The notes under the pieces are model-generated. The model saw nothing but the letters and a program-made list of their open reading frames with translations. It had not been told where the DNA came from and did not search any database. Of a stretch of DNA of 64,000 bases, positions 11,814 through 62,277 are shown in pieces. Position numbers and translations under genes: made by a program. The first letter of the stretch is position 1; each line of letters starts with the position of its first letter. Location: the NCBI GenBank assembly GCA_000165345.1, contig CM000436.1:1024001-1088000 (forward strand). Reading direction: 5' to 3'.

Positions 11814-13292
<1,479 letters not shown>

Positions 13293-15477: not shown

Positions 15478-18775
<3,298 letters not shown>

Positions 18776-35477: not shown

Positions 35478-36254
35478 GTGAAATTTTAAACAATTTTATT
35501 CTTATTATAATACTTTTCCAACTTAATTCATTCAATCAGATAAATCAATCATTTCATTCCTGTAATTAATTATTAATACTATATATATTCACTAAAACTG
35601 ATTAATTTTATTCTAAATCTAATATTTTCTTTTTCTTTCTGACTTATTTTAACTTCATTGTTTTGTAACTTCATTCCTAAATTTTCTCTTATTGGTATTA
35701 TTACTATTATCTTCCCACTTGCCGCCCATGCAGTTATTTTTCTTTTTTAATTCAATGTGGATAAAAATTACGTATACAACGGTAACCACGTAATTTTTAT
35801 AACATGTATATATGCATGCAATGCAAAAATGCATGGCAAGAGGGGGGAATGAGATGCCTGAAAAAATTAAAAGTGTGATTTTAAGGGGGGTGGAGAAGAA
35901 AAAATGATTAATTTGAGAAAATTTTATAAATGAAACGAAAGAATTAAAGAAAGTGAAAATAGAAGTCGAATTTAAAAGTAAAAAAAAAAAGTTGGTCAAT
36001 ACATGTGAATAAGTAAATATTTCAATTTATTACTGCGGTTATTGTCTAATAAGAAATTTTATTTGTATTAAACTTTCAACATAAAATAAAGTGGATATAT
36101 GCAAGTTGAAGAACAGAAAATAATAATATTACTTAAACAGAAAGAATTTTTCTAAAGTTAATTAATTTTTTAAAAAATCCATTCATAAACAAAGATTATC
36201 AAAATAAATTCTTAATTTATTAAAGTTCTTGTTTACGATAATCTAACATAAATA

Positions 36255-37802
36255 ATGTTTAGAGTAATGGATAGTCAAGTTTCAATCATAAGTTACCTTG
36301 GATTAACTCTAAATATATATATTACCATATTTGTTTCATTAATATGGGCATTATTTGTTCATGGAATGAAGTTATGGTTTGAAATACTATTTGGTGTTTG
36401 GATTTTACGTAGAATTTCCCCATTTTCAAAAATTCTTATTGAAAGATTATACAGATTATTAGGATTAGAGTCTGTTGTTTTAGAAAATAAGGATTTAAGG
36501 GGAACTGTATGTATTGTTACAGGTGGAGCAACAGGTATTGGAAAGAAAGTATCCGAGTTTTTTGTTAAATGTGGAGCAACCGTAATAATTGCAGATATAC
36601 AAGAAAATAAAGGCAGAGTTACAGCTTACAAGATTAATACAAATAACTCCTCTACAGGATTAGCAAGATATATGTATATTGATTTATCTGATGAAAAGTC
36701 CATTCGAAGTTTTGTTAAAAGATTTACATAGTAAGTTTTCAACTTGGATATATTAAGATAAATCCAAGAATGAATATAAATTGATTAAATTATTTATTAG
36801 TGATTATGACAGGCTCGATATTCTTGTAAATAATGCAGGAATTGGATCAGGATCAGGATATAGAAAAGAAGAATCAAATGATTTTGAAAAGTATATTAAT
36901 AAAGTATTTCAAGTTAACTATATAGGAACATTTATTTTAACAGAGTTATTATTACCCATTTTAAAAGTAAGTTTTGAGCAAGGCTTATTATCTCAACTAT
37001 CTGAGAAAATATATATATATGTATATATAATAACTTTTATTATTTGAACTTAGAATACAAAAAATTCAAGAATTGTAAATACATGCTCCCCATTACATAG
37101 ATTCTTTGGTTCTAATTTAAGAAAGATACTTGATTATTCACAAATTTTGGAGACTGATTATTCATATGGAGCATCTAAAGCAGCAATACTCCTTTATACA
37201 CTAAAATTAAGAAGGGATGCAATGGGTTTGACATTCTGTCAAACTTTTCAGACTGATAAAGTTGATGAAGGAGGAAATTATGACAATTTTCCTTGGTCAA
37301 CCTGCGTAAATCCTGGATCTGTAAATACTGGAATATTTCCAAAAGTATTTCCATATAGTTTAATATACTATTTTAAATGGTTCTTACTTGATACAAAAAT
37401 GGTGAGTTTAATTTTCATTCAAATATTTTCAATAATTAATTTTCATATTTTTTCTTATCATTTTTTGATAAAATAAAATTTCACCTTTTATTAATATTTA
37501 AAGGGGTCAGAAACTACCATTTTTGCTTCAATATGCCCTAAAGAGCAAGCAACTTTATATATGAGCCCATATTGGTTACCTGGAAATGGATCTTGGTTTA
37601 TAGATAGATTTGCTGATATATTAAGTAAGTATATTTCATAATTATACTCAACTTATTTATTTAATAATACTATCAGGTATATATGTTGGACCCCACTTCA
37701 CCGTCCCAGATCTAAATGATGATGCAGCTTTATCAGCAGAATATCTCTATGAGTGGACATACAACTATTGGAGAGCAAGTAAAACAAAGGAGGAAATTTA
37801 AA
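36255..37802 (+). CDS. membrane-anchored short-chain dehydrogenase/reductase (SDR), 5 exons
   Basis: Exons are 36255..36730, 36801..36966, 37054..37401, 37504..37624, 37677..37802. Donors are GTAAGT x3 and GTGAGT x1; acceptors are YAG. Splicing restores contiguous SDR motifs: TGGATGIGK, RLDILVNNAG, SRIVNTCS, YSYGASKAA, PGSVNTGI. The track shows three separate ORFs, two of them starting at TTG. Confidence 0.7.
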
Positions 37803-37971
37803 AGATAATAAATATTAACAATATATGATATATTATATATATATGTATAGATATATTTATAAATATGCTATACATATACACAAATCTATGACTAAGTGAA
37901 TTGCCTAAGTTTAATAAAAAAAAAAAAAAGACGATACATATTCTCAATATTGTCTTTATTAAACGGATAGC

Positions 37972-38340
37972 TTACATTCTTATTCCTCCCCCAACTTGAG
38001 AAATCATTGCATCAATCAAATCTCCCTCCTGTAATCCAGCGTCTTCAGCTGTCATTTCTGGCCTTAAACGCTCACCTTCAAATAAGAAACGAATTGATTG
38101 TTCATTTTGGCCAGTTCTTTGACAGAAAGAATTCATCAATTTTTGTAAACGAGTTTTTTTCTTAATTCTATATAAAACTTGTTCCCCATCTGGACTTCTT
38201 ACCTTGACTGTTACATACTGACTATCATCAGAAGCTCCTCCTGTTCCTTGATCTATTACTGGCTTCTGCTCAATTTGATGTCCGTCATTACTCCCCTCGC
38301 CTGCACCCATACTACTATTATCTGTGAATCCTGGATCCAT
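37972..38340 (-). CDS. SMT3: SUMO (Smt3) ubiquitin-like modifier precursor
   Basis: Ubiquitin fold aligning with Smt3 (VKVRSPDGEQVLYRIKKKTRLQKLMNSFCQRTGQ...IRFLFEGERL). C-terminal QVGG di-Gly followed by cleavable tail GIRM. Confidence 0.85.
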   Translation of the reverse strand: MDPGFTDNSSMGAGEGSNDGHQIEQKPVIDQGTGGASDDSQYVTVKVRSPDGEQVLYRIKKKTRLQKLMNSFCQRTGQNEQSIRFLFEGERLRPEMTAEDAGLQEGDLIDAMISQVGGGIRM

Positions 38341-38508
38341 GTCTTTTTTTAAAAAAATAACTCAACACTTTTCCTAAATATCTATACTTCTCTCCCTTAT
38401 TATTACTATTACTATTGTTTTTCTCACTTTCACCTCCTGACCTTTCCCTAAATTCTTACTTCAATTCTTCTTCTCCACTAGTGTGGATTTTTAATATTAA
38501 TCATTCGA

Positions 38509-38536
38509 ATTTGGCGCCTATACGTGTTTGGCGCCG
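38509..38536. promoter_or_regulatory. tandem E2F-like sites ATTTGGCGCC / GTTTGGCGCC upstream of SUMO gene
   Basis: Two direct copies 18 bp apart with ACGTG between them. Confidence 0.45.
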
Positions 38537-38768
38537 CTGTGTTGCCGCCATTTGTATAATATATTTGTCGAAAATTTGTCAAAAGAAGAATGTATAGAGG
38601 AAAGTGGGAATATTTTCCGTAATTGAAGTTCACGAAGATGGATTTGAATTATTATTTAGCTCTTCAATATTGAAAAAGCGATTATTATTCTTTCTTGTTA
38701 ATTTCTTTTTCTTTTTTTCCAATTTTTGCCTTAAATATTAATACATGTTTAAGGAACTTACAATCCAA

Positions 38769-39839
38769 TTAGATCTTAGTGAATTTGGCTTGAATCCAAA
38801 CTCTTTGCATAGTAACTTGAGTTTTTCTATTAACAACTTCTCTAAGACAATAGTGATTTGAGATTACTTTGAATCCTGCATTAACAAATAAATTTTCAAT
38901 TTCTTCAATAGTAAAATAGTATGCGAATGTTCCATCATATCTAACATAAAAATTATCTGTGATTTTAGATTTACTTGATTTAGCAAATCTGAGTTGTGCC
39001 ATATCATACCTACCGTAATCTCTAAAAAGTAAAGTAGCTCCAGATTTCAGAGATTTTGAGCATCTTGTAATTACATCCTGGTGATGTTTTGGATGTATTG
39101 CAGATAATACAAAGATTAATAAGCCAAAATCTGCAAAACTTTCGGGACAAATATATGTTGGTATATCAGAATGTACTATATCAAATACAAATCCTCTAAA
39201 TCTAGTGCATGGCTTATCTGAATCTTTTAAACAATTAAATGGACATATTTTTGAATTTTTTTCATTATTTTCATTATTTTCAAGATTAGCCAAAATCTTA
39301 TTCCATCTTTCTTCAAATAAAGAAATTGCTCTTGAAGAACAATCAAATCCAATACAATGTAAATCCTTTGAAATTTGTAATAATGGTATTAAAGAATTAC
39401 CTACTCCACATCCAAATTCAATTAATACTTTAGGATTCATATCATCTGATATATTTGTACTATTAGAAATTAACTCTTTAAACTCCTTATCTATCCAATG
39501 TCTATCTAGAAAGAAGTTTATATTATTTCTTTTATAAAACTTATCCCAATTCTTTACAGATTCCTTTATATATTTGTCTATTAAAAAGTTAAACCAATAT
39601 TAATTACATTCAATTTTTTTTAATTTCTATTTAACTCACCTTTCCAAAATTCTGTAATTGTATCTTTATCTGAATTAATAATTTCTTGAGCTTTACTTAT
39701 TATATCCTCAGTTAATTCAAATTTTCGAACTTATTATTTAAGTTAATATTCCCCACTTTTTTTAAAATAATATTATAAACTTACCTACTTCACTGTCATA
39801 GAAATCTAAATTTCCATCCTTAATTGACTGAGCTTCCAT
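38769..39839 (-). CDS. METTL2/METTL6-like tRNA m3C methyltransferase, 3 exons
   Basis: Exons are 39839..39785, 39729..39640, 39577..38769. Introns run GTAAGT..AAG and GTGAGT..TAG. The spliced N-terminus gives WDKFYK..FFLDRHW. Motif I LIEFGCGVGN. CIGFDCSSRAI and the C-terminal NFYVRYDGTFAYYFTIEEIENLFVNAGF are all METTL2/6 hallmarks. The track shows only the 3' exon. Confidence 0.7.
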
Positions 39840-40116
39840 AATTACTTTAATTTCAAGATCTTTAGTCAAATCTAAGCTTATTCTTTGTTACCTCCCTTTT
39901 AATATATATATATATATCTATTTTTTAATATATTGAATATTGTGCAAAGTATTAAAAAAAAAAAAAAGAAAGAAGTCCTTATTCTAAACTTTTAAAAATC
40001 GAAATAAAAACTCAAAACCTCTTCCATTAATCACTAAACTTTTCCAATAGACTTAATATAGGAAATCCCATGAATTACTTCTTCAATGTTTTTCTTAATA
40101 CTAAGCGTTTAAAAAA

Positions 40117-40130
40117 GTTGGCGCCAAAAG
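40117..40130. promoter_or_regulatory. palindromic E2F-like site GTTGGCGCCAAAAG (divergent METTL/KRI1 promoter)
   Basis: Lies between starts 39839(-) and 40395(+). Confidence 0.45.
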
Positions 40131-40394
40131 TCAAATCAAGAATTTATTTTATATATTAAATAATAATTAAAAAGGTAATTTGAGGATTGAAATAAATATT
40201 AATAAATTGAGTTTTTTTTCTGCTTTTCAAGCAAAAGGGTATAGTTTTAGTAAATATTGTATATATTTTACTTTTGTTATTCCTTGAATTGTATGAACTA
40301 TTGCTTTCTAAAGAAAGCTTTAATAGGAAAATCAGGATCTGGGAAGGAATTGGGAAATATATAGAAATATTAAAACATAATTAAAAGTATTAAA

Positions 40395-42431
40395 ATGAAG
40401 GATTTATTAGATTCAGATGGAGAATCTGGAAATCTCCATGATACCAATACTTTAAAGATTAATGAAGATTACAAAAGAAAATATGATGAAAGAAAGAGAA
40501 AAGAAGCTTTATCAAAAGCAAAAGAACTATTAAAAAATGATAGAGAAGGAGAAGATGATGATGAGAGCTATTCTGAGTCAGATTCATCAGATGAAGATGA
40601 GGATTCTGATGCAGAACTTTTGGACTTAAAGACTCAAAATAAAATACTTGAAACTTTGGATAAAATAAAAAAGAAGGATCCTAGCATTTATGATAACTCG
40701 CATGTAATATTTCCAGATTCATCGGATGAATCTGATGATTCTAATGAATCTGATATAAAATCAAGTAATTCTAATACCCAAAAAAATAGTAAACCAATGA
40801 CTTTTAAAGATTACGAAAGAGAGATTTTATTAAAATCTCAAAATGATGAAGAAGATAATGAAATAGTTAAAAAAGGAATATCTAAGAAATTAGGTTATGA
40901 TAAGGAACAAGATGAGCTAAAGAAAGCATTTCTTAAAGCAGCAGAAGGATTAGATGAAAGTGAAGACGAGTTATTTTCTGGAACTCTGATTAAGAAAGAT
41001 AAAAGTAAGGAAGAGCTTGAAGAAGAAGAAAGAAATTTTAAATCATTCCTTACACGTAATATAGAGGAAGGAGGAGATCCAATAGAATCTTTAAATAGAT
41101 ATTGGGGTCCTGAGGAAGATTTGGATGAAAATGAAAAGTTTTTAAGAAATTATATATTAAATCAAGAATGGAAAGAATCCAATAGTCAGAAAAGAATTAA
41201 TGATGAAAACTCATCAAGTTATACAATTCAGACAGAAATGGACGAAGAAGAAGATGAGAAACATTTGGAATTATCAAATGAATTTGAAGGTATATATAAT
41301 TTTAGATACGAAGAACCAGGAGCTAACCAACAGATTATGGGATACTCTAGAGATATATCATCCCTAAGAAGGCCAGATGAACGTAGAAAACTGAAAAGAA
41401 AAGAAAAAAAAGAGAGAAAAGCTGAGGAAAAGCTTAGAATGGAGGAGGAATTAAAGGTTTTAAAGAGTATGAAGAGGAAGGAAATTATTGAAAAGCTTAA
41501 AAAGATTCAAGAAGTTTCAGGAATTAGCTGTATTTCAGATGAAAAGTTGGATTTGGAAGGAGATTTTGATCCTGATAAACATGATAAATATATGGAGGAG
41601 CTCTTTGATGATGATTATAATGAAAAGAAGGAAGATCTTTCATTATGTGAGATTTTGGAAAATAATGATGAAGGATTGAATGAATTAAGTGATGGGAATA
41701 TAAAAAATGAGAAAGAGGCCAAAAAACATAAAAAGAAGCTTTTAATGAAAGAAAACCAATTAAATGACGAATCAGAAATAAAACCACCATCTACTTATGA
41801 AGATGATGACTATGTATGGTGGCAATGTGATGGTTGTTTGAAAGAGATTCTTCCAAATAAGAAAAAATTTGATTGTAAAGTTTGTGAGAACTTTACTCTT
41901 TGTAAGTCTTGTTGTAGAAATACCAACCACGAGCATCCTCTTGAAAAGAGTCGTGTACCAGAGCCAATTAATAAAGAATTTAATGATAATGAAGAAGCGG
42001 AAATTGATGAAATGACCAGTTCTAACAGGCTGAATTTGAGATATGGAGACAATGAAAAGATTAATAGTTTGTTGGATGAATATTATAGTCTCCATTTTGA
42101 AGATGTTTTAGACAATGGTAAGATGCCAGTTAGATTTAAGTATACAAATGTCGAAAAGAATGACTATGGACTTAGTGTTGAAGATATTTTATCAATGGAT
42201 GATAAAGCATTGAATCAACATATTTCTTTAAAGAAGCTGGCTCCATATAGGGTTGATAAGAAGAGAAAGTATTCACCACCAGTAAATACTTCAAATGAAG
42301 CAAAATCTTCGAATAATATGAACAAGAAGCATCATAATAAGGGTAATAAATTCAAACGAAGTTATTCAAATAATAAGAATTCATTAAATACATCCCATAT
42401 TAATAAGCATCGTCTTGAATCTTACTATTAA
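40395..42431 (+). CDS. KRI1: KRI1 ribosome-biogenesis protein homolog carrying an embedded ZZ-type zinc finger
   Basis: Acidic Ser/Asp N-terminus. FRYEEPGANQ motif. C-terminal KRI1 domain LNQHISLKKLAPYRVDKKRKY. Between them sits WWQCDGCLKEILPNKKKFDCKVCENFTLCKSCCRNTNHEHP, matching the ZZ finger pattern C-x2-C...C-x2-C...H-x-H. Confidence 0.65.
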   Translation: MKDLLDSDGESGNLHDTNTLKINEDYKRKYDERKRKEALSKAKELLKNDREGEDDDESYSESDSSDEDEDSDAELLDLKTQNKILETLDKIKKKDPSIYDNSHVIFPDSSDESDDSNESDIKSSNSNTQKNSKPMTFKDYEREILLKSQNDEEDNEIVKKGISKKLGYDKEQDELKKAFLKAAEGLDESEDELFSGTLIKKDKSKEELEEEERNFKSFLTRNIEEGGDPIESLNRYWGPEEDLDENEKFLRNYILNQEWKESNSQKRINDENSSSYTIQTEMDEEEDEKHLELSNEFEGIYNFRYEEPGANQQIMGYSRDISSLRRPDERRKLKRKEKKERKAEEKLRMEEELKVLKSMKRKEIIEKLKKIQEVSGISCISDEKLDLEGDFDPDKHDKYMEELFDDDYNEKKEDLSLCEILENNDEGLNELSDGNIKNEKEAKKHKKKLLMKENQLNDESEIKPPSTYEDDDYVWWQCDGCLKEILPNKKKFDCKVCENFTLCKSCCRNTNHEHPLEKSRVPEPINKEFNDNEEAEIDEMTSSNRLNLRYGDNEKINSLLDEYYSLHFEDVLDNGKMPVRFKYTNVEKNDYGLSVEDILSMDDKALNQHISLKKLAPYRVDKKRKYSPPVNTSNEAKSSNNMNKKHHNKGNKFKRSYSNNKNSLNTSHINKHRLESYY

Positions 42432-42657
42432 TTTTATATGATTAAATTATAAGAATGGTTTGAATCTTGTTAATCATATTTTATTTGTCTAATATTGTAA
42501 AGATTTGATGAAATATTTACCATTCATATTCCTCATTATTAGTGTTTTTAAAGTTAATTTATAAGTATTATTTATATTTTAAAAAAAAACCAACTTGTTT
42601 CTTTTTAAATAAGTGTTATTTAATAATCAGTTAATACTTGTTTATTATTGACTAATA

Positions 42658-43740
42658 TTATACAACTTTTTCACCATTCACAGTAATTTGAGGATTAAAC
42701 CCAAGTGAATCTTTAACAACAACATGTTGGTTTCCTTTGGATTTCAACCAATTAACAACATTAGACTGTACATTTCCTGCCATTTGAATTTGTTTCCTTG
42801 CAATTTGTTCAATCCATCTTTAAATTTTAATAATTAGTAAGAAAATAAAATGATATAAACTTGAAATATAAATATACTACATATACTTACCTTAAATCTT
42901 TTGTAGTAAGTGCAGGTACTCCTAATGAAGAATCTGATAATCCAGTATTTTCTATAGTACCCATATTTTTTGAGAATGTAATTCCACTATTCTTGCAGAA
43001 TATCTGAGTAATTATCAAATAAGTTAATATGATAATTTTGTATAAATTTGAATTAATTCAAATAAATAAAAAAAACTTACAGCTTCTGTCAACTTATTCA
43101 TCATTTCGTTTCTCTCTTCGTCAGACTTTGCACACATAACTACAGGTGATCCATCGAAATACATTCTGAAACATTTTCTGCTATTTTGAACAGATTCCAA
43201 AGGAACCTCAATTTTATTAAGTGAGAAACTTCTTACAAGGCTTTCTGGATTTTTTAGGTCTGTCATAAATAATAAATCATCCTTAGTAATTTTTACTCCA
43301 AGAAGATCGACATCGAAAATATTTCTTGGATCCAAAGCTAAAGCTAATTCACCTGAAATCATTACAGAACAGACAGGATCTCTTGGTGAATCAACTACTG
43401 GCATACTAGTAACAACATCTCTTTGCTTTAATTTATTATTTGTAGCATCATTCATTGCTTTTTGGTAAACTGAAACAGCTGATGAAACTGCTTCACTATA
43501 AAGCTTTTCAGAATCTTTCTGGCTTATCTGGGATTTACCTTCCCCAATTACTGATACTGGTTCGACATTTGCACCGATTATTTTTCTTGCAGTTTGTATT
43601 AAAGTTGTGATTGTACCAGGTAAAAATTGTGGCTCTAATAAACCAAAATCTGATGTTGAACGGGTTAATCTTGCATGAGCATATTGGCTCAATCCTGCTA
43701 TTGATAGTAAATTAATCAAAAAGAAAATTCTCATTTTCAT
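42658..43740 (-). CDS. hypothetical secreted protein, 3 exons
   Basis: Exons are 43740..43081, 43003..42891, 42817..42658. Both donors are GTAAGT; acceptors are CAG and AAG. Signal peptide MKMRIFFLINLLSIAGLSQYAHA. No family recognised. Confidence 0.5.
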
Positions 43741-44397
43741 TATTTCTTTTTTTTTCTAGATTAAACTATATCAAATACTCTCTTCTTTGATTAATAATTA
43801 ATTTTTTTTCTCTGTAGAATATTATTATTATTCTACAATTCCATCCGAATTAATTAATCACAATTTTTTTTTCTTTAGTTATGTGTTATTTTAATTAAAT
43901 TGCATTATAATTAATTTATCGACATTTTTTAATGATTTTTTGGTGCATGTAATTGATGACGTCATTTTTTTTTTTTAAATTGAATTACGTCATTTTATCC
44001 ACATAAATATATACCGGTATTACATACATGCAAAAAATTATTATTCATAATACAATTTTTGCGCATGCAAAAAAAAAATGCAAGTTTGCTAATTTAGTCC
44101 ACATGAAATTGCATGCAAGTTTTTTAAGCTTAAAGAGATAAATAGAAAGAATTAAAAAAAAAATAATTGTTTTTGCATGTATATGCAAAGCCGGTATTCA
44201 ATAAAAGTCAGAAAATGAAAATTCATGCATAAATACATGTAAAAAAAAAATACATTTATGCATACAAGAAAGGAGTAATTCGTGATAATCTAAATTAAAT
44301 CAAAACAAGGGTATTTTCAAAATAATCTTCTTGTTATTTAATATTTAAAAAAATTATCAAATAAATAAAAAAGGTATTTAATTTTGAAAGAAGAATT
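43741..44397. promoter_or_regulatory. divergent promoter densely packed with TGCATGCA-type (ApiAP2-like) motifs plus ATACCGGTAT, TTATCCACAT and TGACGTCA
   Basis: At least 8 GCATGCA/CATGCA copies (44030-44265). ATACCGGTAT at 44011-44020 and 44189-44198. TTATCCACAT at 43995-44004. TGACGTCATTTT at 43954-43967 and ACGTCATTTT at 43987-43996. Confidence 0.5.
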
Positions 44398-45742
44398 ATG
44401 GTGAAATTATCAAATTTAAAAAAGGCTATTTTACTTTTGGGTTGCATTGGAATGAGTAATGCCTTGACAGTTTTTCATTTAACCAATCCATTCGATTTAT
44501 TACAAGGATTGAGTCATGTTAAGCTTGAGAGAACTACAGAATTACCAGTTTCTCATAAAACTTTGAGGTTTTTACAAGAAAAAATTAAGTCATTTTCTGT
44601 TGATGGGGATAATGTAGCAAAAGAAGCTATTCAAGGTATTAGTTCAACAACAGGAGTCAACTTCAAAACTACTCCTTTATCACAAGAAGCTTTTAAATTA
44701 CAAAGCAATACATTATTTGCTGAAGCTGCTGAAAAGAGAAAGGTTGCTAAATATTTACAAGAGCAAAGTGGAATGACTGAAACTGAACTCACACAGGCAG
44801 AAATTGATCCAAAGAAGAATCCAGAAAAAGCTGCTGCTATCACAAATATGAAACGTGCTAAGGTACTTCTTGCTCAGGCTTATATTTTAGAAGGTAAGGT
44901 TTTATATTTAAACAAAAAATTAATAAGGTGAATAGAAGAAATCAAATAATGTATTTATATTTCTATTCCTCTTTATTGACAAATAAATCAGAAAGTTATT
45001 AACTTAATCTTTTCACCCTAATTTAAATTATAATTAATATAGAGGAAGCTAAAAGAATGCAATTAGCTTCCACTAGAAGTGGAAACAACGAAAGCTTTAA
45101 ATGCGATATTCTCAAGATTGGCCCTCTTGCATTTGCTCCAAATAGTGAAGAAATTACTGATATTATGGATGGATCTCTTGGATTCTTGAATGGTAATATG
45201 TTATCAATTTACTACAACTCAGTAAGTTTATTCTTGATTTCTTCTTTTCTATTCAATATTTAATTCATCATTATCATTCTTGAAATTTAAAGATTCCAAA
45301 AGCATCATTTTCATTAGAAAGTATTGAACTACCAGTTCATAATGTTGACGCTGCTCCAGGATGTATTGGCTTTAAATACCATGGAACAGACCAAATTATT
45401 TGTGCTACAGGAAAAGATAGTCAATCTGCATGGATTAATGCAATCACTGAAGCATGGTTTTGCAGAAACTTAGGTTTAGCAGGAACTTTACCATCAATTT
45501 CTGATAATCAGAGTAAGTTTACAAAAAAAAACCTTAATAATTTGAACCTTTATATTCACCTATTATTATTAATAGAAGAAGAAGAACAAGAAGAAGGTGA
45601 GACTGAAGAAAATGAGGAAAATAGTGACAAGAAACAAAAAGAAAACAAAAAGAAAAAGAAATCATCAAGACTAGTCAGATCTTCAGTAAAAACATTCACT
45701 GTCGAATTAGAAGATGGAAAACCAAAAATTACTCAAAACTAA
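44398..45742 (+). CDS. hypothetical signal-peptide protein with PH-like domain and charged tail, 4 exons
   Basis: Exons are 44398..44893, 45043..45221, 45293..45512, 45576..45742. Donors are GTAAGG, GTAAGT, GTAAGT; acceptors are TAG, AAG, TAG. The four track ORFs sit in three different frames and are joined in phase by these introns. N-terminal h-region AILLLGCIGMSNA. C-terminal EEEEQEEGETEE..KKKKK. Confidence 0.5.
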
Positions 45743-46975: not shown

Positions 46976-47280
46976 AGAGACAAAAAGGAAACATCGGGCC
47001 ACTCCCTTTTCCTTCGGCCGTTCAGAATCATCCACACCGCTCGGAGTTCCAACCCAAGAAACTCCGCTGGGTCATCAATGCCGTGCAAGCATACATAAGC
47101 GCATTATCTGGACCAACTTAAACTCCAAAGGAGATAAGAGGAACCAGATAAGAGCAGAGTAGAAACAGGCTACGCTTCCCGTTTCCGGCGGGATGGATAA
47201 CTCATCGTCACGGACAGAGGTGTTGTCAAGAGCTGTAGCCCAATACGATCGGATTCACTATAGAAATGATCCCGTTCGAG
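46976..47280 (-). ncRNA. U3: U3 small nucleolar RNA (box C/D)
   Basis: The minus strand reads ...GUCGACUGUACUCGAACGGGAUCAUUUCUAUAGUGAAUCC. That covers the 5' GACUNUACU element and the invariant box A GGGAUCAUUUCUAUAGU (47246-47262). Downstream are box C UUGAUGACC (47059-47067), a 7-bp hairpin CGGAGUU/AACUCCG, box D CUGA (47011-47014), then UUUCCUUUUU. TTATAC sits at -30 and a GGTCCAAT repeat lies upstream. The 3' end is uncertain: either about 47005 or the T-run at 46971. Confidence 0.75.
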
Positions 47281-47638
47281 TACAGTCGACATTGGACCGT
47301 TGAATTGGAAAAAGGTATAATCCGGTACTGCACGTTTTGGTGATGGTTCTCGAAGAGAATTATACGTATTGGACCGCATTATGTTAGAAGAAAAGTAATG
47401 TAATGTCTTTGACAAATTTCTTTAAGTTGAAAAGCTTATTGATTAGCAACAGGACTGCATGTAGTTAGTAAATTTCATAAATCATAGAATAAAAGGGGAT
47501 AAAATAGAAGGAATAGGAAATATTATGTCATCAATTTAAGTTAGAATAAGGTAGAAATTAGAAATAACAAATGTTGATTACTTATTATAGACTATATCTA
47601 AATGCAGTAGAGATATTTAGAACTAAATAGGCTGAGTT

Positions 47639-53039: not shown

Positions 53040-53079
<40 letters not shown>

Positions 53080-54407: not shown

Positions 54408-54817
54408 TTTTTCTGTATTTTTGCTTCTTTAATATAGATATAACACAAATTTCTAATTATGTGGTAACCTGGAGTTGTCCTTTTTTATATATAAATATCT
54501 ATAAATTTTAAACGACTAATTAAAATTTAATTAGGTCAAATTACGCCTTTCAAAAAAAAAGAATTCCTTTTTTTCTTTGTTTAAATTTAATTGATGTTTA
54601 ATACGTATTAATTATTAAAGTAATTTCATTTACCGCTATTAATAATTTAATTTTTATTAATTGATAAAATTAATAACTCATTACATTTATTATATAAATA
54701 AATATTAGTCAATTATTATTTACAATATTTTATTTTCTTTATGCATTTTTTTTTTTTTTAAAGCATTTAATTATAATTTTATTACTATTAATAGAGACGC
54801 CGTCGTCCTAAGTTCAC

Positions 54818-54830
54818 GTTTGGGCGCCAA
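54818..54830. promoter_or_regulatory. E2F-like site GTTTGGGCGCCAA (divergent RPS15A/Nop14 promoter)
   Basis: Lies between starts 54407(-) and 55192(+). Confidence 0.4.
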
Positions 54831-55191
54831 CTTTTGTTACCTATTAATATTTTATGAAGAAAAAAAATTTTTTTTTTAATCTAAAAATAGGTAACTCGGT
54901 ATAACAGTAATTTATAGCCCGCCTTTTTTTTAAAAAAAAGTTTCACTATTAAAGAATTTTAGATAAGAGTCAAAAATTACAAGGGAATTTTAAGTGAGAA
55001 GAAATAAAAAAGCAGAGGGGGAAAATTGTTTAAGGTCATTAATTCAATTGAAATTATTGAATATGTATTAAAGTTAAAGTGGAAATATTAATTGATTCGA
55101 ATATTATCTAGTAATATAATTTAATAATTATTTGTAAATATCTTAAAATTTTGCATATTTAGATGAAATAAGTTCCAAATTAATGTGAAAG

Positions 55192-58100
55192 ATGGCTAAA
55201 AATAATGGAATAAAAGATCTGAGTTCAGCTTTTAATGTAGTAAAGTATNANNAGNAAGATCCTCATTTGAAAGTAATAAAGAGTAGAAATTCTAGTAAAA
55301 TAGAAAATTCATTAGATAAGAGAAAAGATAAATTGGGATTTAACGATCGTGATTTCCTTGAAAGAAAGAGGTCTATACTTAAAGAGTTATATTCAGAGGG
55401 AAGGAAGAGTGAATTTAATGATGAGAGAGAGAAGTTTGCTTTAAGAAAAGATTCTATTGGAGATAATTATCAGACTTTAATAGCTACTAAGCAATTAAAG
55501 AAGAAAGTTAAGAAGAGAAAGAATAACTTTAATTTGGACGAAGAAGAAGATGATGATAATGATTATAGAGGACATTCTGGTGAAAATTTAAATAATACTA
55601 GTACTAATGATTTAGAATTCACTCATCAAGGAAAATCTATTTCAGCCTTGGATGATAAGGCTATTCGTAAATATGATGGTAATATAGATGAGGATAATGA
55701 TTTCGATGATAATGATTATACTGGTAGCCGTAAAGGAGATAGTATTTTAGATGAGAAGAATATGCCAGGTTTTTTCTTTGGACAAGGAAATTCAGATGGA
55801 ACTTCTACTAAGTCTAGACAGGAGATATTTAAAGAAATTATGCAAAAGAGTAAGCTTGCAAAGATGGAGATGAAGAGACATAGAGAAAGTCTAGAGGAGG
55901 AGTTGGTTAATTTAGATAGTGCATTTTCTCAAGTTCAATCAATGCTTAGTTATAAACAGTCAAGAAAAGACAGAGTCAATTCTTTACTGAATAATATTAA
56001 TTCTAATTCTTCTGTTACTGATAATAATGGTAATGATAATAATATTCAGTCATCTGACAAGAATATTGAAGAATTGGATGAATATGAACAACTCAGAAAT
56101 CTTCTAAAGTTTGATACAAGAACTGGTGTTTCTGATAGAATTAAAACTGATGAAGAAATTGCAAAACTTAATGCTGAAAAACTTGAGAGGCTTGAAAAGG
56201 AGAGAAAAGAAAGAATGAATCTTGATGATTCCAATATTGACATTGACTTGAGTACTGAATCGGAAAATGAGTACTTTAAGGACGACTTTGATGATGAAGA
56301 TGGTGAAGAAGAGGACGGCTTTGAAGATGAAGAAGAAGATGAAGAAGAGGAAGAAGAAGAGGAAGAAGAAGAGGAGGAGGAAGAGGAGGAAGAAGAGGAG
56401 GAAGAAGAGGAGGAAGAAGAGGAAGATGAGGGACGGAAAGTAGAAAAGGACTGCTTTGAAGAGGAAGAAGAAGATGGGGAGGGGGAAGAAGAGGACGGTG
56501 AGGATGATGAGGAGAGAGTGAAACCCGCATCTAAAGGATTCATTGATTTCGAATTAAATGAAATTGATGAAATTGATTGGTTGGTGAACGATGAATCTGA
56601 ACCAAATTTACCATTTAGTGTTAATTTGAAGAAAATCTTGAAGGAATATAGTTTGAAGGGACTTATGGAATTTATGAATGGATTTTCTCCAAAATCTCAA
56701 TGGAAATTTATTTGCAGATTTAGATCATGCTTTAATAAGGGAGATACTGCAATGTTGAATGACTTAAAACTTCTTATTGGTTTTCTTATTAAATATCCAT
56801 TAAATTGTCTAAGAACAGCAGAATCAGATTCTGAAAAGAAGAATATTTTTCAATTTATTATTAATTATCTTAAGCTTATGAGTAGTCATTTATTATTTAT
56901 GGCAGAAACTGATCCAAAAGAATGCCTTATCATTTTCACTTACTTTACATTTGAAATTTGTCATACAACATTTCCAAGTGTTTATCACAAATATAAAAAA
57001 GTTGAAAAGTTTTTAAATGATAATCTTTTAAATGTAGAAAATGAAAACTATTATACTGAAATATTAGAAGAATGTCCATCTTTATACCAACTTTCTGAAG
57101 ATATATATGAACTGACTTTAGAACATATTGTGATATGTAGAATGATGTTTATATTATTCCCAGTTACTGATGCTCAACATCCAATATTAACTCCAGTTAT
57201 TATATGCTTGGAACAATGGGCTCACAGATGGAGTCAAGTTGGGAAATCTTTACTAAACACTAACACACCAGATCAAGATAGTGAAGAGTTTAAATACAAC
57301 CAAATAAGGCTTGTTGGGGGTAGTAACCCAAATATTAGTTGCATGATTGGAGTAATCTGTCTATTGGAGATATCTAGTATTGGTTATGCAAATAGTAAAT
57401 CAAATAATAATGGTAATGAATTGCTTGAAAGATTTAGTATTGGTTACTTTACTTTATCATTAAGTTGCCTTAAATGGCTGTTATTGTCTGATCCTGATAA
57501 TAATATTTCCATTGAAGAAAAAAGAATTTCATTATCAATAGGAATTCTTAAATCTTTAATTAGAGTAATTTCTGCTTTTAAAGATTTACAAGGGTTCCAT
57601 GCTATTATTATTCATCTTATCCGTGAAAATATCAAACAAATTAATGAATCATTAATGAAGATGGATAATTGTAAAGTATTGTTAAATTTGGTTTCTGAAA
57701 TTGAATCGATCTCTACAGAAATTGCCAATAGACCTCAAAAACCAATTAGTCTTTGTCCAAGACAAACTCCAACAATTAGATCTTTGATTCCCAAAATTGA
57801 TGATCCATCTGTTCCATTTGCTGCAAAAGCTATGCTTAGAGCCAAACATGGTCCCAAAGAATCCCAATATGAACATGAAAAGAAACATTATTTGTCTAGA
57901 TTGAAAAAAGAAGTCAATACTGCTAGAAGACAAGCCAGTAGACAACTTAGAAAAGATTCACAAGTGATTGCAAGTGCATGGCATGAAAATAGAACGGAAA
58001 AATCCAATAAACAAAATGCCAAGTATAATTCCTTCATGAAGATGTTAGAAGACGACCAAGCTGAATATAAGAGGATGAAGACTACAGGTGGAACCATGGA

Positions 58101-58194
58101 TACTTCAATTCAATCTTATAGAGCCAATAAACAAAACAAGAAGAAGAATCAAAAGATGGCTGGTAATAAAACTGCCAATGGTCTTGTCCACTAG
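55192..58194 (+). CDS. NOP14: Nop14 (Utp2)-like nucleolar SSU-processome protein with poly-Glu tract
   Basis: IKTDEEIAKLNAEKLERLEKERKERM and the C-terminal LIPKIDDP...LSRLKKEV..RQLRKDSQVIA match conserved Nop14 blocks (RTKTEEEKAKEEAERL..LEAERLRRM; FIPKFEENFNP...LRELRKDSRFLA). A 26-residue E-run is encoded by a GAA/GAG repeat at 56330-56450. Ambiguous bases at 55249-55255. Confidence 0.6.
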   Translation: MAKNNGIKDLSSAFNVVKYXXXDPHLKVIKSRNSSKIENSLDKRKDKLGFNDRDFLERKRSILKELYSEGRKSEFNDEREKFALRKDSIGDNYQTLIATKQLKKKVKKRKNNFNLDEEEDDDNDYRGHSGENLNNTSTNDLEFTHQGKSISALDDKAIRKYDGNIDEDNDFDDNDYTGSRKGDSILDEKNMPGFFFGQGNSDGTSTKSRQEIFKEIMQKSKLAKMEMKRHRESLEEELVNLDSAFSQVQSMLSYKQSRKDRVNSLLNNINSNSSVTDNNGNDNNIQSSDKNIEELDEYEQLRNLLKFDTRTGVSDRIKTDEEIAKLNAEKLERLEKERKERMNLDDSNIDIDLSTESENEYFKDDFDDEDGEEEDGFEDEEEDEEEEEEEEEEEEEEEEEEEEEEEEEEEEDEGRKVEKDCFEEEEEDGEGEEEDGEDDEERVKPASKGFIDFELNEIDEIDWLVNDESEPNLPFSVNLKKILKEYSLKGLMEFMNGFSPKSQWKFICRFRSCFNKGDTAMLNDLKLLIGFLIKYPLNCLRTAESDSEKKNIFQFIINYLKLMSSHLLFMAETDPKECLIIFTYFTFEICHTTFPSVYHKYKKVEKFLNDNLLNVENENYYTEILEECPSLYQLSEDIYELTLEHIVICRMMFILFPVTDAQHPILTPVIICLEQWAHRWSQVGKSLLNTNTPDQDSEEFKYNQIRLVGGSNPNISCMIGVICLLEISSIGYANSKSNNNGNELLERFSIGYFTLSLSCLKWLLLSDPDNNISIEEKRISLSIGILKSLIRVISAFKDLQGFHAIIIHLIRENIKQINESLMKMDNCKVLLNLVSEIESISTEIANRPQKPISLCPRQTPTIRSLIPKIDDPSVPFAAKAMLRAKHGPKESQYEHEKKHYLSRLKKEVNTARRQASRQLRKDSQVIASAWHENRTEKSNKQNAKYNSFMKMLEDDQAEYKRMKTTGGTMDTSIQSYRANKQNKKKNQKMAGNKTANGLVH

Positions 58195-58840
58195 TTTTCT
58201 ATATTAGTATATATACTTTTTTCGTCATATATATGATTTTTGTTTTTAACTTAATTAACTTATATGTTTACGCTTTATTCTTTTTATTTCAAAGTGAAAT
58301 TTTATGATTTATGTCCAAATTCCTTTCTTTTTTTTTATCCACATTTCAAATTATTAATCAATTATTTAATTACTGGTTGCATGCATGCACGTATTCATTT
58401 TTGCAATTCTTACTACACCGGTATATAAGCAATTGATTTATGTAATTAATGTGGACATTACGTGTCTATTAATAATTACCGGTATACAGTTTAAAGAAAA
58501 AAAAAATGTAAATAGCAAATTGCGGGAAAAAAAATCATTGCAATTATTAAATAATATACAATTATGCAGGAAAATTGAAGGAATTAACAAAACTTCTAAA
58601 ACAATTATATTGCTTTTAATGCTGGTATATGAAGATCAAAAAAACGATTAATTATTATTTTCTTTTATCGTTTACTCTGGAATAGAGATAAGTTGATTAA
58701 CTTCAAGTATTTAAAAATAAATTGTGATAAATTTTAATAGAAATATTATTATTGAAGAAGATTTAATCAATTTAAGTTAATTTATGATTTACAAAGTTTT
58801 TTTAAAATACTGAGGTAATAATTCAGATGAATAAAAAACA

Positions 58841-60136
58841 ATGAAGAAAAATCAATTAGCGTTAGAATTACATAAAAGTGCTAATATAACGGATTTGTCT
58901 GTATTAGAAGATGAAAAAAAGTTGGTAAGATTTGGTAATAGTGGAAAATTAAAACACAGAGGAGAACATTTGAAAAGACCTACGGAGTCAGAAGAATTAG
59001 AGATTTATGAAAAAACTAAAAAAGCTTTGAATTTAGTAATTGATAGAAAACAGGATACTCTTTATCCATTTAAAGAAAGCAAAAAAGAAGCTAAGACTGA
59101 ATTCATAAAATATAGATCGAGTTCCGATACTATTGGATACGATCCAAGGTTTGCTGAAAGAATAATTAAAGTAGTGGAAAGACCTAAAGATCCTTTAGAA
59201 CTTCCTAAATTTAAAAATAGAATATTGGGAGGTACAAAAAGGGAGGAAATGGTTCCTATTTTAAGACCACCATCAAAAAAGCTTACTCAAGAGGAAATTA
59301 AAGAGTGGAATATTCCCCCAAGTATTTCAAATTGGAAAAACCCTATGGGTTATACTGTTCCTTTAGATAAAAGAGTACAAGCTGATACTCGTGATTTAAT
59401 TAATATCTCAGTTAATGATAGATTTGCAACATTAAGTGAATCTTTACAACTTGCAGAGAAGAATGCAAGAGAACAAATTAAACTTAGAAATGAACTTCAA
59501 AAACAGAAGAAAATTAGAGAAGAAATGGAAAGAGAGGAAAAACTTAGAAAATTAGCAGAGTCGTCCAGATATGAAAGAAGTAGCCATCATCTTCTTTCAA
59601 AAATTCCAGAATTTTATCAGGATAAAAAAGAAGGTTCAGATGAAGATAATGACGAATTTGATCATATTAGAAGAATAGAATTAGAAAAAAGGAGAGAAAT
59701 TGAAAGAGAATTTAGGCAGGAAAGAGCAGGGAAAAAATCAAAAACATTACGTGATAGCGATAGAGATATTTCTGAACATATTGCTTTAGGCCAAGCTCAG
59801 TCTGCTAATATTGGGTCTTCTTCTGAGTCCCAGTTTGATGCAAGACTATTTAACAAGGTATCAGGATTAGATTCAGGATTTTCCAATGATACTATAAGTG
59901 TTTATGATAAGCCATTATTTAATACAAATAATTTAAAACATAGAGGATTATATACTTTTGAAGAAAGTAGAGTTGAAGAAAGTATTGGAGGAAGAGTTCA
60001 TGTACCTTCATTTTCAGGTACTGATAATTCCAAAACAGCTCTCAGAACAAAACCTGTTGAATTTGAAAGGGATGAAGATGATCCTTTTGGATTGGATAAA
60101 TTAATTGATTCAGTAAGAAAGGATTACAAAAAGTAA
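58841..60136 (+). CDS. SNW-domain protein (SKIP/Prp45 spliceosome component), probably lacking a 5' exon
   Basis: SNW domain RILGGTKREEMVPILRPPSKKLTQEEIKEWNIPPSISNWKNPMGYTVPLDKRVQADTR. The N-terminal (GYRKGW / FGDGGAFPEI) region seen in orthologs is absent from this ORF. Confidence 0.8.
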   Translation: MKKNQLALELHKSANITDLSVLEDEKKLVRFGNSGKLKHRGEHLKRPTESEELEIYEKTKKALNLVIDRKQDTLYPFKESKKEAKTEFIKYRSSSDTIGYDPRFAERIIKVVERPKDPLELPKFKNRILGGTKREEMVPILRPPSKKLTQEEIKEWNIPPSISNWKNPMGYTVPLDKRVQADTRDLINISVNDRFATLSESLQLAEKNAREQIKLRNELQKQKKIREEMEREEKLRKLAESSRYERSSHHLLSKIPEFYQDKKEGSDEDNDEFDHIRRIELEKRREIEREFRQERAGKKSKTLRDSDRDISEHIALGQAQSANIGSSSESQFDARLFNKVSGLDSGFSNDTISVYDKPLFNTNNLKHRGLYTFEESRVEESIGGRVHVPSFSGTDNSKTALRTKPVEFERDEDDPFGLDKLIDSVRKDYKK

Positions 60137-60417
60137 TTACAGGTTTTATTTATTTCAAGTATATTGAAAGAAATGTAATCAATTTTACACTCGTTAAGTT
60201 CATATTAAAAATATATTAAGATTATTAATGTTTTTATACTCAGTATATTATATATATTGTAATAAGATATTACCCTAGTTAAGTATATTGTATTAGTAGT
60301 TATGATGCAGTTATATTGTCTGTTAGTATTCTCTTACAATTAAATGAGAAGCAATTTCAACATTAATAATTAACATCATATAATTCTTTTTATAGGGACA
60401 ACTTTTGATGTTCTTTT

Positions 60418-60951
60418 TTATGCTTGTGATTCAACGCTGACACCTCTTCTTAAAGCTTCATAATAAGAGCTTGCAACCCAAGCAGCAAAGTAATCAAATC
60501 CAACAGTAATAATGGAAATAATCAAAACTACAAATGAAAATACTGAGAATCCAAGTCTGATAATTGCAAAGAATATTGCTGAAACAAGCAATAATGAGCT
60601 GATAGTAAGTAATAGTGCTTGAGCATATGCGAACATCTTGGAAGTTGATTCTTGTTTTTGATAAGCTGCAATAAGACCAATAACTCCAACTCCAAATCTT
60701 GCAATTGCTACAATGAGTCCTGGAAAACTCATTGCAGTGAAAATTTGAAAGATTGAAAAAGCCAAAGTAACTGATGAAAGGATTGTCACCACTCTTCTTA
60801 ATGGAAGAGGTCCAACTTTTCCTAATGGGTGTGGAAACAAGAAACCTGAAGCTTTTTCATAGTCTGCATATTCACGTGCTTTATCAATTCCTTGTTGGGC
60901 TGAAGATAAAAGTGATTCACTTTGATTCTTTAAAGTTTCTGCGTATGACAT
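60418..60951 (-). CDS. hypothetical small 4-TM membrane protein
   Basis: 177 aa, four hydrophobic helices, no family recognised. Confidence 0.4.
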   Translation of the reverse strand: MSYAETLKNQSESLLSSAQQGIDKAREYADYEKASGFLFPHPLGKVGPLPLRRVVTILSSVTLAFSIFQIFTAMSFPGLIVAIARFGVGVIGLIAAYQKQESTSKMFAYAQALLLTISSLLLVSAIFFAIIRLGFSVFSFVVLIISIITVGFDYFAAWVASSYYEALRRGVSVESQA

Positions 60952-62277
60952 TTTTCTTTGCTTTAAATATATTAACGATTAAGTTTATTCTAATATAGTT
61001 GAATCAGCAGATGATATATGCTTATATACTGCTTTCTTTTGAGTCTTTTAACTAGTAATAATCTTCCTTTAAGAAGCTTAATTAGCTAATATTATCAGCT
61101 CGAAATTAATTCAAATATTATGTACACTCGTACAAATTTAATTTAATGTTTATTAACTGATTGACTACTCTCTAGTTATCTACTTTTTATCTTGAGTTAT
61201 TTTTTCATGCATGCAATTGCCTGTGGCTTGCTTGCATTATTATTTCAATAATAAAATTTTTATTATTATTTTTTTTATGTGGATAATTTGCATACATGCA
61301 TGCAAACTTGCATTCACAAAAATGTCAGTTTTTCTATACCGGTATGCACAAATTTTTATTATTAATTTTTTTGTCCACATTCATACACATGTAATAATAA
61401 AATTAAACTGATAAAAGCAGAAAAATTTAATATGATTTATGAAATTAAAAAAAAATTTGTTTATGTGGGAAAATATTGGAAAAATAGAAAGATCATATAT
61501 TATTGGATTGAATTAAAATTGATAAAACCATAATTTTTAAGATAAGAAATCATTTTTTTTTAATGGTAAATTGCGATTCGTGGTTTTTGAATTTAAACAA
61601 TACCTAAAAGCTAAAGAAGAAAGAAAGTATATAATAAATATATCTTAAATTATTATAAACAGAATATTATCTCTTATTTTGCAATAATAAGTTTGATAAA
61701 ATAATTTATTTGATAATGTTTTATTATTAACGCAAAGTTAAATAATAATTATAATAATTAATTTAATGGAAAAGAAAGCATTTATTAATGTGGATAAAAT
61801 GATACAATATAATTAATCTGCAAACTTATTTCGTCGAATTAAATTGAATTCAAGTTAATTAAATATTATTAAATTATATGTCATTCTTTAAAGTTTTAAA
61901 AATTGGTTAATTTTTTTTTCCCTAAATATCATGTAAATGGGCAAGATGTTGGACAAGGCGGTAATATTTAATTAATTGATAATCGAATACAAGCTAATAA
62001 TCAAACATAAGAAAAAAAAAATTCTTCTAAAAATAAGAATTAAGAATATAACTTTGTATATTCCAATATAATAAGAATTAGCTTTTAGAGAATTATAAGC
62101 AAAGTTAACTGATGAAATTTGGTGGTTCCAAATTTACTTAGAAAGCTAAAATTATTCCAAATTAAAGAAGAATACAAGAAATTTCTGTAAGAGAAAAAGG
62201 CACACAATAACAAGCATATAAATAAAAATATATCTTTCATTTTGATTAATTTGGGGATCTTTGCTATTTTAATTAAT

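Follow-up and report, generated by a model that had tools for sequence, protein, structure and literature searches.

RTCCACAT, a putative transcription-factor site linked to AP2_1 boxes beside female-gamete genes on Cryptosporidium parvum chromosome 8

Analysis of a 64-kb stretch of DNA (the window, meaning the whole stretch analysed) revealed a short word, RTCCACAT, that recurs in a small subset of its spacers. The window corresponds to Cryptosporidium parvum chromosome 8, cgd8_4090 to cgd8_4410; its SNW/SKIP protein (58841-60136) is identical to C. parvum Iowa II EAK89576.1, and a 177-aa protein (44398-44931) to EAK89570.1 of the same isolate. The word occurs non-randomly, is tightly linked to GCATGC and is present beside all five strongly female-specific genes of the window, and several of its sites are conserved in other species. 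RTCCACAT is therefore described here as a putative transcription-factor site, probably one of at least four boxes in a promoter module of genes that are switched on in the female gamete (macrogamont). One half of this module is known, as TGCATGYR in macrogamont promoters has already been published; the RTCCACAT partner is barely described.

The sample comprised the window and about 10 kb of further C. parvum sequence past its right end. Orthologous syntenic loci of C. meleagridis, C. ubiquitum, C. canis, C. felis, C. bovis, C. serpentis, and C. muris were compared, and expression values were taken from RNA sequencing of sorted asexual and female parasites (Tandel et al., 2019), the column headers of which were checked. 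The window has a G+C content of about 29% and tightly packed long open reading frames (ORFs), with 36% of the DNA lying outside long ORFs.

The 10-mer TTATCCACAT, from which the original prediction started, was present at all five positions given for it, namely 35755-35764(-), 43995-44004(+), 58335-58344(+), 61277-61286(-), and 61788-61797(-). A sixth exact copy had been missed. It lies at 29892-29901(+) in the GMC oxidoreductase ORF, antisense to the gene and with no partner boxes nearby, and is probably a chance copy. The prediction had staked itself on enrichment over base composition, and the 10-mer is indeed enriched, with six copies in the window versus 0.34 expected, a count reached in none of 100 shuffles. 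The five degenerate copies, GTCCACAT, likewise all exist and all lie in non-ORF DNA, but their coordinates had been off by 1-2 nt; the corrected positions are 44097-44104(+), 61373-61380(+), 31110-31117(-), 58449-58456(-), and 4986-4993(-). Altogether, RTCCACAT has 12 copies in the window, 10 of them in non-ORF DNA, where 0.77 would be expected and none of 1000 dinucleotide-preserving shuffles reached 10. A logo of these ten sites shows a T-rich run, then R, the invariant TCCACAT and finally N-A-A, giving the extended form TTTT-R-TCCACAT-N-AA (reverse complement ATGTGGAY). The word is found in both orientations, no repeat of 14 nt or longer links the spacers apart from AT-rich low complexity, the flanks of the copies differ, and none of the motif-bearing spacers contains an Rfam family, the sole Rfam match in the window being a U3 small nucleolar RNA (snoRNA). 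These observations point to a protein site at the DNA level. A dispersed repeat or mobile-element remnant was rejected, as the copies share no sequence beyond the short word, and so was a structured non-coding RNA gene, as the motif spacers have no Rfam match.

RTCCACAT is closely tied to the palindromic AP2_1 box TGCATGCA and its core GCATGC. TGCATGCA is known to be bound by the female AP2 factor cgd2_3490 and by cgd1_3520 (De Silva, 2008; Oberstaller, 2013, 2014). It occurs nine times in the window versus 0.43 expected, and all 13 copies of GCATGC lie outside ORFs; co-occurring boxes that fit this palindromic core start at 4961, 4975, 35813, 44110, 58378, 58382, 61208, and 61297. Every one of the six RTCCACAT spacers contains GCATGC, which is found in eight of 32 spacers (hypergeometric P = 3e-5; P = 1.6e-4 among spacers of at least 400 bp), and the proposed co-occurrence with GCATGCA thus holds. 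Moreover, nine of the ten non-ORF sites lie 10-75 bp from GCATGC, compared to 0.73 by random placement (P < 1e-4). The spacing from RTCCACAT to TGCATGCA ranges from 3 to 75 bp, and the orientation is variable. Tested as an AP2_1 site, RTCCACAT contains no GCATGC and is non-palindromic. Because its sequence differs and its spacing and orientation to TGCATGCA vary, RTCCACAT is considered separate from AP2_1. Its confinement to TGCATGCA-rich promoters, which had been claimed, was borne out, none being found in the other 26 non-ORF segments. Most of these 26 segments carry E2F-like boxes ([GC]GCGC[GC], 38 of 42 matches outside ORFs), and the non-ORF segments fall into two nearly exclusive classes, the E2F type and the GCATGC/RTCCACAT/CCGGTA type; the convergent spacer 4464-5492 is the only one with both E2F-like boxes and RTCCACAT.

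In the expression data, only five genes of the window have a female log2 fold change (log2FC) above 6, and all of them adjoin spacers with RTCCACAT and GCATGC. The GMC oxidoreductase gene cgd8_4230 (28238-30886(-)) rises from 2.4 log2 counts per million (log2CPM) in asexual parasites to 8.9 in females (log2FC 6.5). For cgd8_4290, which encodes a PH-domain-like crystalloid-body protein (first exon 43024-43740(-)), the values are 1.0 and 10.8 (log2FC 9.8), and for cgd8_4300, the first exon of the merged crystalloid-body gene cpbgf_8004310 (44398-44931(+)), 1.0 and 8.9 (log2FC 7.9), with 1.0 and 10.1 for cgd8_4310 (log2FC 9.1). The window maximum is reached by cgd8_4390, an uncharacterised protein of 177 aa (60418-60951(-)), which rises from 1.0 to 11.2 (log2FC 10.2). 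The 5' spacers of these five genes (30887-31523, 43741-44397, and 60952-62277) are three of the six RTCCACAT spacers. This overlap between motif spacers and female promoters has P = 0.0075 among 21 promoter-containing spacers, and P = 0.003 when clusters of at least three box types within 200 bp are used.

The original prediction had named SKIP, TFIIS, and SF3B3 among the hosts of the motif, but the genes that define the subset are not these; they are the neighbours cgd8_4390, cgd8_4230, and cgd8_4290/4300/4310 (log2FC 6.5-10.2). The female rise of TFIIS is only 2.2 log2 units, and the "secreted pair" of the prediction proved to be crystalloid-body proteins. The transcriptome cluster of the downstream genes, proposed as a check, is that of the female gamete for the five genes flanking three of the six spacers. 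Published data place the same genes in this programme. cgd8_4290, cgd8_4300, and cgd8_4310, all of them PH-domain genes, belong to a set of 13 crystalloid-body genes (Tandel et al., 2023), and cgd8_4290 is listed as a target of the female factor AP2-F, on which it depends (2025 review). In a 72-h time course, cgd8_4300 and cgd8_4390 cluster with CCP1, CCP2, TRAP-C2, FNPA, and NIMA kinase 5, and cgd8_4230 with cgd7_5140. The annotations disagree on part of this region: cgd8_4300 (177 aa) and cgd8_4310 (204 aa) form one intron-containing gene of 353 aa in newer assemblies, and the orthologues of cgd8_4290 have 306-325 aa (244 aa in C. bovis) versus 238 aa for the ORF in the window (43024-43740).

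RTCCACAT and TGCATGCA are accompanied by two further box types, TACCGGTA and an ACGT core, and the module therefore has at least four. CCGGTAT has eight copies in the window, all non-ORF, versus 0.49 expected, and TACCGGTA palindromes are present in three modules. The ACGT-core boxes TGACGTCA, TTACGTCA, and TTACGTGTC stand beside other box types. In the three female spacers taken as foreground, the enriched words are the TGCAT(G) family, TCCACAT (6 vs. 5, Fisher P = 5.7e-4), ATACCGG (5 vs. 3), ACGTCAT (3 vs. 0), and CATGCAA (10 vs. 6). An ACGT box directly before RTCCACAT, claimed for three cases, was found in two as described, as ACGTCATTTT-ATCCACAT at 43987 and ACGTAATTTTT-ATCCACAT at 35755(-), but the third, at 58449(-), is shorter (ACGTAAT-GTCCACAT) and lacks the T run. 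As a marker across the window the ACGT core was rejected as weak, since five of 11 TACGTGT matches lie in ORFs, though single copies are deeply conserved. The order, spacing and orientation of the boxes vary from module to module; together with the lack of longer shared similarity and of any Rfam family, this points to a cluster of protein-binding sites and not to a repeat or an RNA gene. Enrichment, co-occurrence, proximity, and partial conservation in orthologous promoters thus all support the "discrete composite cis-module" that had been proposed. A CCGGTAT + ACACGTA pair, 20 bp apart (25423-25449), was also found upstream of cgd8_4200, without GCATGC or RTCCACAT.

In the divergent promoter of cgd8_4290(-) and cgd8_4300/4310(+), the TTATCCACAT copy at 43995-44004(+) directly follows TTACGTCATT. 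C. meleagridis retains this copy, and C. felis instead has copies at other places in the spacer, with a change of strand. The GTCCACAT copy at 44097-44104(+) ends 5 nt before TGCATGCA (44110-44117), and GCATGC at 44063 and this TGCATGCA delimit a segment (44063-44117) that is accompanied by several TGCAT half-sites. The third box type is represented by the TACCGGTA palindrome at 44012-44019 and a second CCGGTAT at 44191-44197, the CCGGTA of which is kept in C. felis and C. bovis, and the fourth by ACGT-core boxes within 43957-43992 (TGACGTCA at 43957-43964 and TTACGTCA at 43985-43992).

In the cgd8_4390 promoter, the TTATCCACAT copy at 61277-61286(-) is 10 nt away from CATGCATGCA, and the cgd8_4390(-) ATG follows 326 bp downstream. 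This site is kept as ATGTGGAT/ATGTGGAC (ATGTGGAY) in C. meleagridis, C. ubiquitum, and C. felis, and the C. canis version has moved and merged with the AP2 box into CATGCATGTGGAT. Both TGCATGCA boxes of this promoter, at 61208 and 61297 (61208-61304), are conserved as far as C. felis. The GTCCACAT copy at 61373-61380(+), in the spacer shared with TFIIS, is identical in C. meleagridis, C. ubiquitum, and C. canis at a spacer identity of 46-65%. Between these two RTCCACAT sites lies TACCGGTA (61337-61344), which is kept in C. meleagridis, C. ubiquitum, and C. felis and has one change in C. canis. A further TTATCCACAT copy in the same spacer (61788-61797(-)) is isolated, its nearest GCATGC being 490 bp away. 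In the third female promoter, that of the GMC gene, GTCCACAT (31110-31117(-)) lies 224 bp upstream of the cgd8_4230(-) ATG. It is accompanied by GCATGCGCATGC (31070-31081), which comprises two AP2_1-type cores and of which TGCATGC is kept in C. felis, and by TTACGTGT (31057-31064(-)), part of CATTACGTGTCAA and identical in C. felis. Read as CATTACGTGTC, this last box is identical in the C. parvum and C. felis GMC promoters (C. felis locus 3800-3812), which are otherwise highly diverged.

The other three RTCCACAT spacers carry comparable groups of boxes. In the Nop14-SNW spacer, TTATCCACAT (58335-58344(+)) is followed by TGCATGCATGCA (58378-58389), which consists of two overlapping AP2_1 boxes, and by CCGGTAT at 58418 and TACCGGTA at 58477 (58418-58484), kept in 4-5 species. 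The GTCCACAT copy at 58449-58456(-) adjoins TTACGTGTC (58458-58466(+)), the ACGT-core box of this module, which is kept in C. meleagridis, C. ubiquitum, C. canis, and C. felis. The whole block AATGTGGACATTACGTGTCTAT around 58449 is kept in C. meleagridis and C. canis and has one change in C. ubiquitum; taken with two CCGGTAT boxes, this block is kept in four to five species. The CATTACGTGTC box here (58458-58466) is kept in five species and is more deeply conserved than RTCCACAT. The SDR gene, presumably cgd8_4250, has TTATCCACAT (35755-35764(-)) 491 bp upstream, adjacent to a TTACGT...ACGTAA palindrome and with TGCATGCA at 35813-35820; beside this copy, an inverted repeat TTACGTATAC...CCACGTAA (35768-35793) is kept in C. 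meleagridis. The last site, GTCCACAT at 4986-4993(-), belongs to the convergent (3'-3') spacer that separates PRP43 from a WD40 gene. Two TGCATGCA boxes (AP2_1 motif, 4961-4982) precede it, the second at a distance of 3 nt. A G-rich, G-box-like run, CACGTGGGAGGGGCAGGG, follows at 4994-5020, right after this group of ATGTGGAC and double TGCATGCA, between two gene 3' ends and with no annotated promoter.

Across the genus, C. meleagridis keeps all seven RTCCACAT sites examined. The sites 61277, 61373, and 58449 persist in C. ubiquitum, C. canis or C. felis, in spacers that overall are 34-65% identical. The copies at 58335 and 61788 are found in C. parvum and C. meleagridis only, as is the copy at 35755, which C. 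felis and C. muris have lost. RTCCACAT thus behaves like a functional site with turnover, and relative to GCATGC, CCGGTA, and the ACGT box it is younger or more plastic.

As a prediction tested outside the window, the upstream region of the moderately female-specific gene cgd8_4450 (log2FC 4.7), beyond the right end, was inspected. About 430-480 bp from the gene (fetched locus 3880-3940), it contains ATGCATGC..TACCGGTT..CCCCACATGACGTGTA..GGCGCC. The extra 10 kb of C. parvum sequence has only two exact RTCCACAT, both in the coding sequence of cgd8_4420. This coding sequence holds a complete module, with the two RTCCACAT, TACCGGTAT, TGCATG/ACATGCAA, and TGACGTGT (C. parvum locus 12305-12420; C. 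meleagridis locus 18640-18750). Across six species, the boxes fall on the sole conserved peptide islands (SCGQ, HAK, YMQ, IPVR, VYVDN) of an otherwise poorly conserved stretch. This coincidence suggests that the internal module may serve as a promoter, either intragenic or antisense. Between cgd8_4440 and cgd8_4430 there is a tRNA-Ala(AGC) gene (locus 9233-9306(-)), and the GCATGC inside it is not a promoter box.

Several observations weigh against a role of RTCCACAT in female-specific expression. Three of the six motif spacers are not accounted for by a known female gene: those upstream of SNW and SDR and the convergent spacer, which has no promoter. SNW (cgd8_4380) is absent from the differential-expression table. 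KRI1 is upregulated in females (log2FC 4.0) without having the module, and at so few spacers the association with female genes is inseparable from that with GCATGC. At cgd8_4450, GCATGC, TACCGGT, and TGACGTGT are present, but RTCCACAT only as CCCCACAT, with two mismatches; the module concept holds at this gene, and RTCCACAT is not obligatory there. The GMC-promoter copy at 31110 is lost in C. felis, where the adjoining TGCATGC and ATTACGTGTCAA are kept. Finally, RTCCACAT is rare (0-1 per 21 kb) in the loci of C. bovis, C. muris, and C. serpentis, and hence it is neither necessary nor ancient.

The reading with the most support is a combinatorial promoter module of the female stage, the boxes of which cluster within about 60-250 bp. 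In late females, the AP2_1 boxes would be occupied by AP2 factors that have TGCATGCA as their target, namely cgd2_3490 and, as listed in the 2025 review, AP2-F (cgd4_1110), a second sequence-specific factor would bind RTCCACAT, and further factors would bind TACCGGTA and the ACGT core, the latter being a bZIP-type site. These factors might then cooperate to activate the adjacent gene or genes, often in both directions, so that the boxes would bring about female-specific expression. The bZIP protein cgd6_740 is a candidate for the ACGT box. According to the 2026 F-RBP preprint, it is not yet settled what specifies female expression; the three female AP2s appear late. We tentatively suggest, as a possibility short of an even chance, that RTCCACAT is read by a factor of the female lineage other than an AP2, candidates being the early female zinc finger F-ZF (cgd4_1360) and the GATA/AT-hook protein cgd1_1700, which is upregulated in females. 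Together with the AP2s at TGCATGCA and the TACCGGTA and ACGT factors, it might form a combinatorial code for the maternal transcriptome (crystalloid body, late oocyst wall) in the C. parvum-like intestinal clade, and the modules in the convergent spacer and in the cgd8_4420 coding sequence might drive female antisense or internal transcripts. The G variants of RTCCACAT, which have no GATA, are a difficulty for cgd1_1700.

The alternative that survives best is a broader "late/maternal" element, active in the late female, the zygote and the sporulating oocyst, with transcripts stored for sporozoites, which would also fire non-coding or antisense transcripts at the orphan sites (upstream of SNW and SDR, in the 3'-3' spacer, and inside cgd8_4420). 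Such an element would be in line with crystalloid-body proteins being proteins of a sporozoite organelle that are transcribed in females, with the Plasmodium orthologue of the TGCATGCA binder being the sporozoite factor AP2-Sp, and with the full module at conserved peptide islands in cgd8_4420. AP2_1 motifs also occur upstream of some C. parvum long non-coding RNAs (lncRNAs), and SNW has values of 9.3, 5.0, and 5.5 in a three-group table (sporozoite, 24 h, 48 h), the column order of which is unverified. On the other hand, the lncRNA supplement (Li et al., 2021) lists nothing under cgd8_4xxx gene names, and accessible-chromatin (ATAC-seq) peaks of sporozoites show E2F motifs and no AP2 motifs. 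We consider this element, including its non-coding transcripts, a live alternative, although rather an improbable one.

Somewhat less likely still is that RTCCACAT represents a variant site of an AP2 domain, be it the G-box binder cgd8_810 (DTGTGGGG / G[T/C]GGGG), a CACACA-type domain or an uncharacterised domain of the three-domain AP2-F. The cgd8_810 motif shares TGTGG with the reverse complement of RTCCACAT, two domains of AP2-F bind DNA, with logos that are shown in a figure only, and AP2 domains often accept secondary motifs. However, GGA[CT] is present in all ten sites, and the G-box is defined by a GGGG run that none of them contains. The text of the protein-binding-microarray paper on AP2 domains lists TGCAT, CACACA, the G-box, GGTGCACC, and a few others, and adds that many motifs over-represented in upstream regions do not belong to AP2 domains. 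Oberstaller (2013) judged the motif A[T/A]G[T/A]GGA.A unrelated to the 25 motifs of the 2013 study, the G-box among them.

An element acting at the RNA level in 5' untranslated regions, for example in the storage or translational repression of maternal mRNAs, seems very improbable. Female mRNAs are stored and translationally controlled in this parasite, and of the six copies close to female genes, five have an orientation that is compatible with the sense strand of such a gene. However, both strands are used within one spacer (61277- and 61373+; 58337+ and 58449-), and a C. felis copy is strand-flipped. Furthermore, the distance from the sites to the downstream ATG is 220-840 bp, in spacers common to divergent genes, one module is in a convergent spacer and one is in a coding sequence, and the published female RNA motif, CAMCAACAR, is different and lies in coding sequence. 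Least credible of all is a recurrence without function, through chance, base-composition bias, dispersed-repeat remnants or mutational bias beside GCATGC: the sample is small, the copies at 58335, 61788, 35755, and 31110 are lineage-specific, and an exact copy lies in coding sequence at 29892, but none of the 1000 shuffles reaches the count, the copies share no similarity beyond the boxes, three sites are conserved at a background identity of 34-65%, and the upstream regions of Class II COWP genes on other chromosomes independently yielded the same consensus.

Similarity to known sites in other organisms does not change this assignment. The bacterial DnaA box is TTATCCACA, and MYB sites of plants include TATCCAC and the I-box (GGATAA). 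Both agree letter for letter with the five TTATCCACAT copies, a coincidence with no supporting context. A DnaA box or oriC was rejected, as this is a eukaryotic chromosome with spliceosomal and ribosome-biogenesis genes and the boxes lie in promoters beside transcription-factor motifs. The plant TATCCAC box was rejected because in half of the sites TTGTCCACAT or another G variant disrupts TATCC/GATAA, and a GATA-factor site (WGATAR) because GATAA is found only in the five ATCCACAT copies and the five GTCCACAT copies read GACA, GACT or GACC. Against all three stand the G variants, which break them, and the invariance of TCCACAT. The chance, repeat-element, RNA-element, and DnaA-box readings are disfavoured.

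According to Pfam matches and published tables, the gene order of the window begins with PRP43 (cgd8_4100) and continues to an HMG-box gene (4220), GMC oxidoreductase (4230), SF3B3-like (4240), and SDR (4250). The middle part comprises SUMO (4260), a methyltransferase (4270), KRI1 (4280), cgd8_4290, cgd8_4300/4310, and fibrillarin (4330), and the last part UCH, L7, S15a, Nop14 (4370), SNW (4380), cgd8_4390, TFIIS (4400), and cgd8_4410. The U3 snoRNA gene (Rfam RF01848, 126.5 bits, full length) lies at 47016-47289(-) between cgd8_4320 and fibrillarin. Synteny is broken in C. bovis (locus 417-3601), where seryl-tRNA synthetase and an alpha-amylase-family gene replace the SF3B3 and SDR of the other species.

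Development of the female gamete is an obligatory step for oocyst formation and transmission of Cryptosporidium. Because AP2 factors of every stage bind TGCATGCA, this box alone is insufficient for female specificity, and the RTCCACAT partner box provides a testable second input. It offers a bait (such as TTTTATCCACATAAA) for the factor by DNA pull-down or DNA affinity purification sequencing (DAP-seq), and a route to predicting from the sequence which genes are female or crystalloid-body genes. Small promoter elements, usable for engineering stage-specific expression, are defined by it as well. The scope of the finding is a specialist one.

Composite cis-elements of female gametocytes in Plasmodium combine the AP2-FG site TGCACA with a ten-base PFG element, TGTRNNYACA. 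The likeness lies in sex-specific promoters that pair an AP2 site with a second element read by a partner factor; the difference lies in the sequences and the genus, and orthology of the factors is not established. Within Cryptosporidium, the G-box (G[T/C]GGGG; cgd8_810, female-specific) shares its 5' part, (A/T/G)TGTGG, with the reverse complement, but a run of four G occurs in none of the ten sites, which all read GTGGA[CT]. Compared to AP2_1, RTCCACAT is non-palindromic and shares only ATG with it; the two are alike in that a partner AP2_1 box is present in every RTCCACAT spacer, that both belong to the same class of female or macrogamont genes, and that both are short boxes in compact promoters. 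AP2-F is listed as AP2_1-like (2025 review), and TGCATG(T/C)(G/A), which matches the cgd2_3490 site, is the most enriched motif in 65 macrogamont promoters (Hasan et al., 2024). The TGCATGTG of that logo may partly come from fused TGCATGTGGA arrangements, as they occur in the orthologous promoters of C. canis, C. felis, and C. bovis.

The closest known counterpart is a motif from the literature; the original prediction had not recognised a published consensus. RTCCACAT is absent from the 25-motif table of Oberstaller (2013), from the text of the AP2 protein-binding-microarray paper, and from the motif table of the 2025 review, and searches for the strings TCCACA and TGTGGA with Cryptosporidium or ApiAP2 yielded no other description, only primer-like matches. 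The word is, however, not wholly unpublished, as its reverse complement was printed as an "unknown motif", 5'-A[T/A]G[T/A]GGA.A-3', found with AP2_1-like motifs upstream of Class II COWP genes (Oberstaller, Joseph and Kissinger, 2013, BMC Genomics 14:516). That motif came from a handful of COWP promoters, was given one sentence outside the 25-motif table, does not appear in the 2025 review's table either, and was at no point connected with crystalloid-body genes, other female genes, partner boxes or conservation. The agreement with the sites described here is close, and it supports the same pairing in late female genes independently, from other chromosomes. All ten non-ORF sites read ATGTGGA and eight of them have A at position nine, so that ATGTGGAYA fits the 2013 consensus. 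Like RTCCACAT in six of six window spacers, the published motif is paired with AP2_1-like motifs, and its genes peak at 72 h, in the late female and oocyst programme, which is matched by three of the six window spacers with their five genes.

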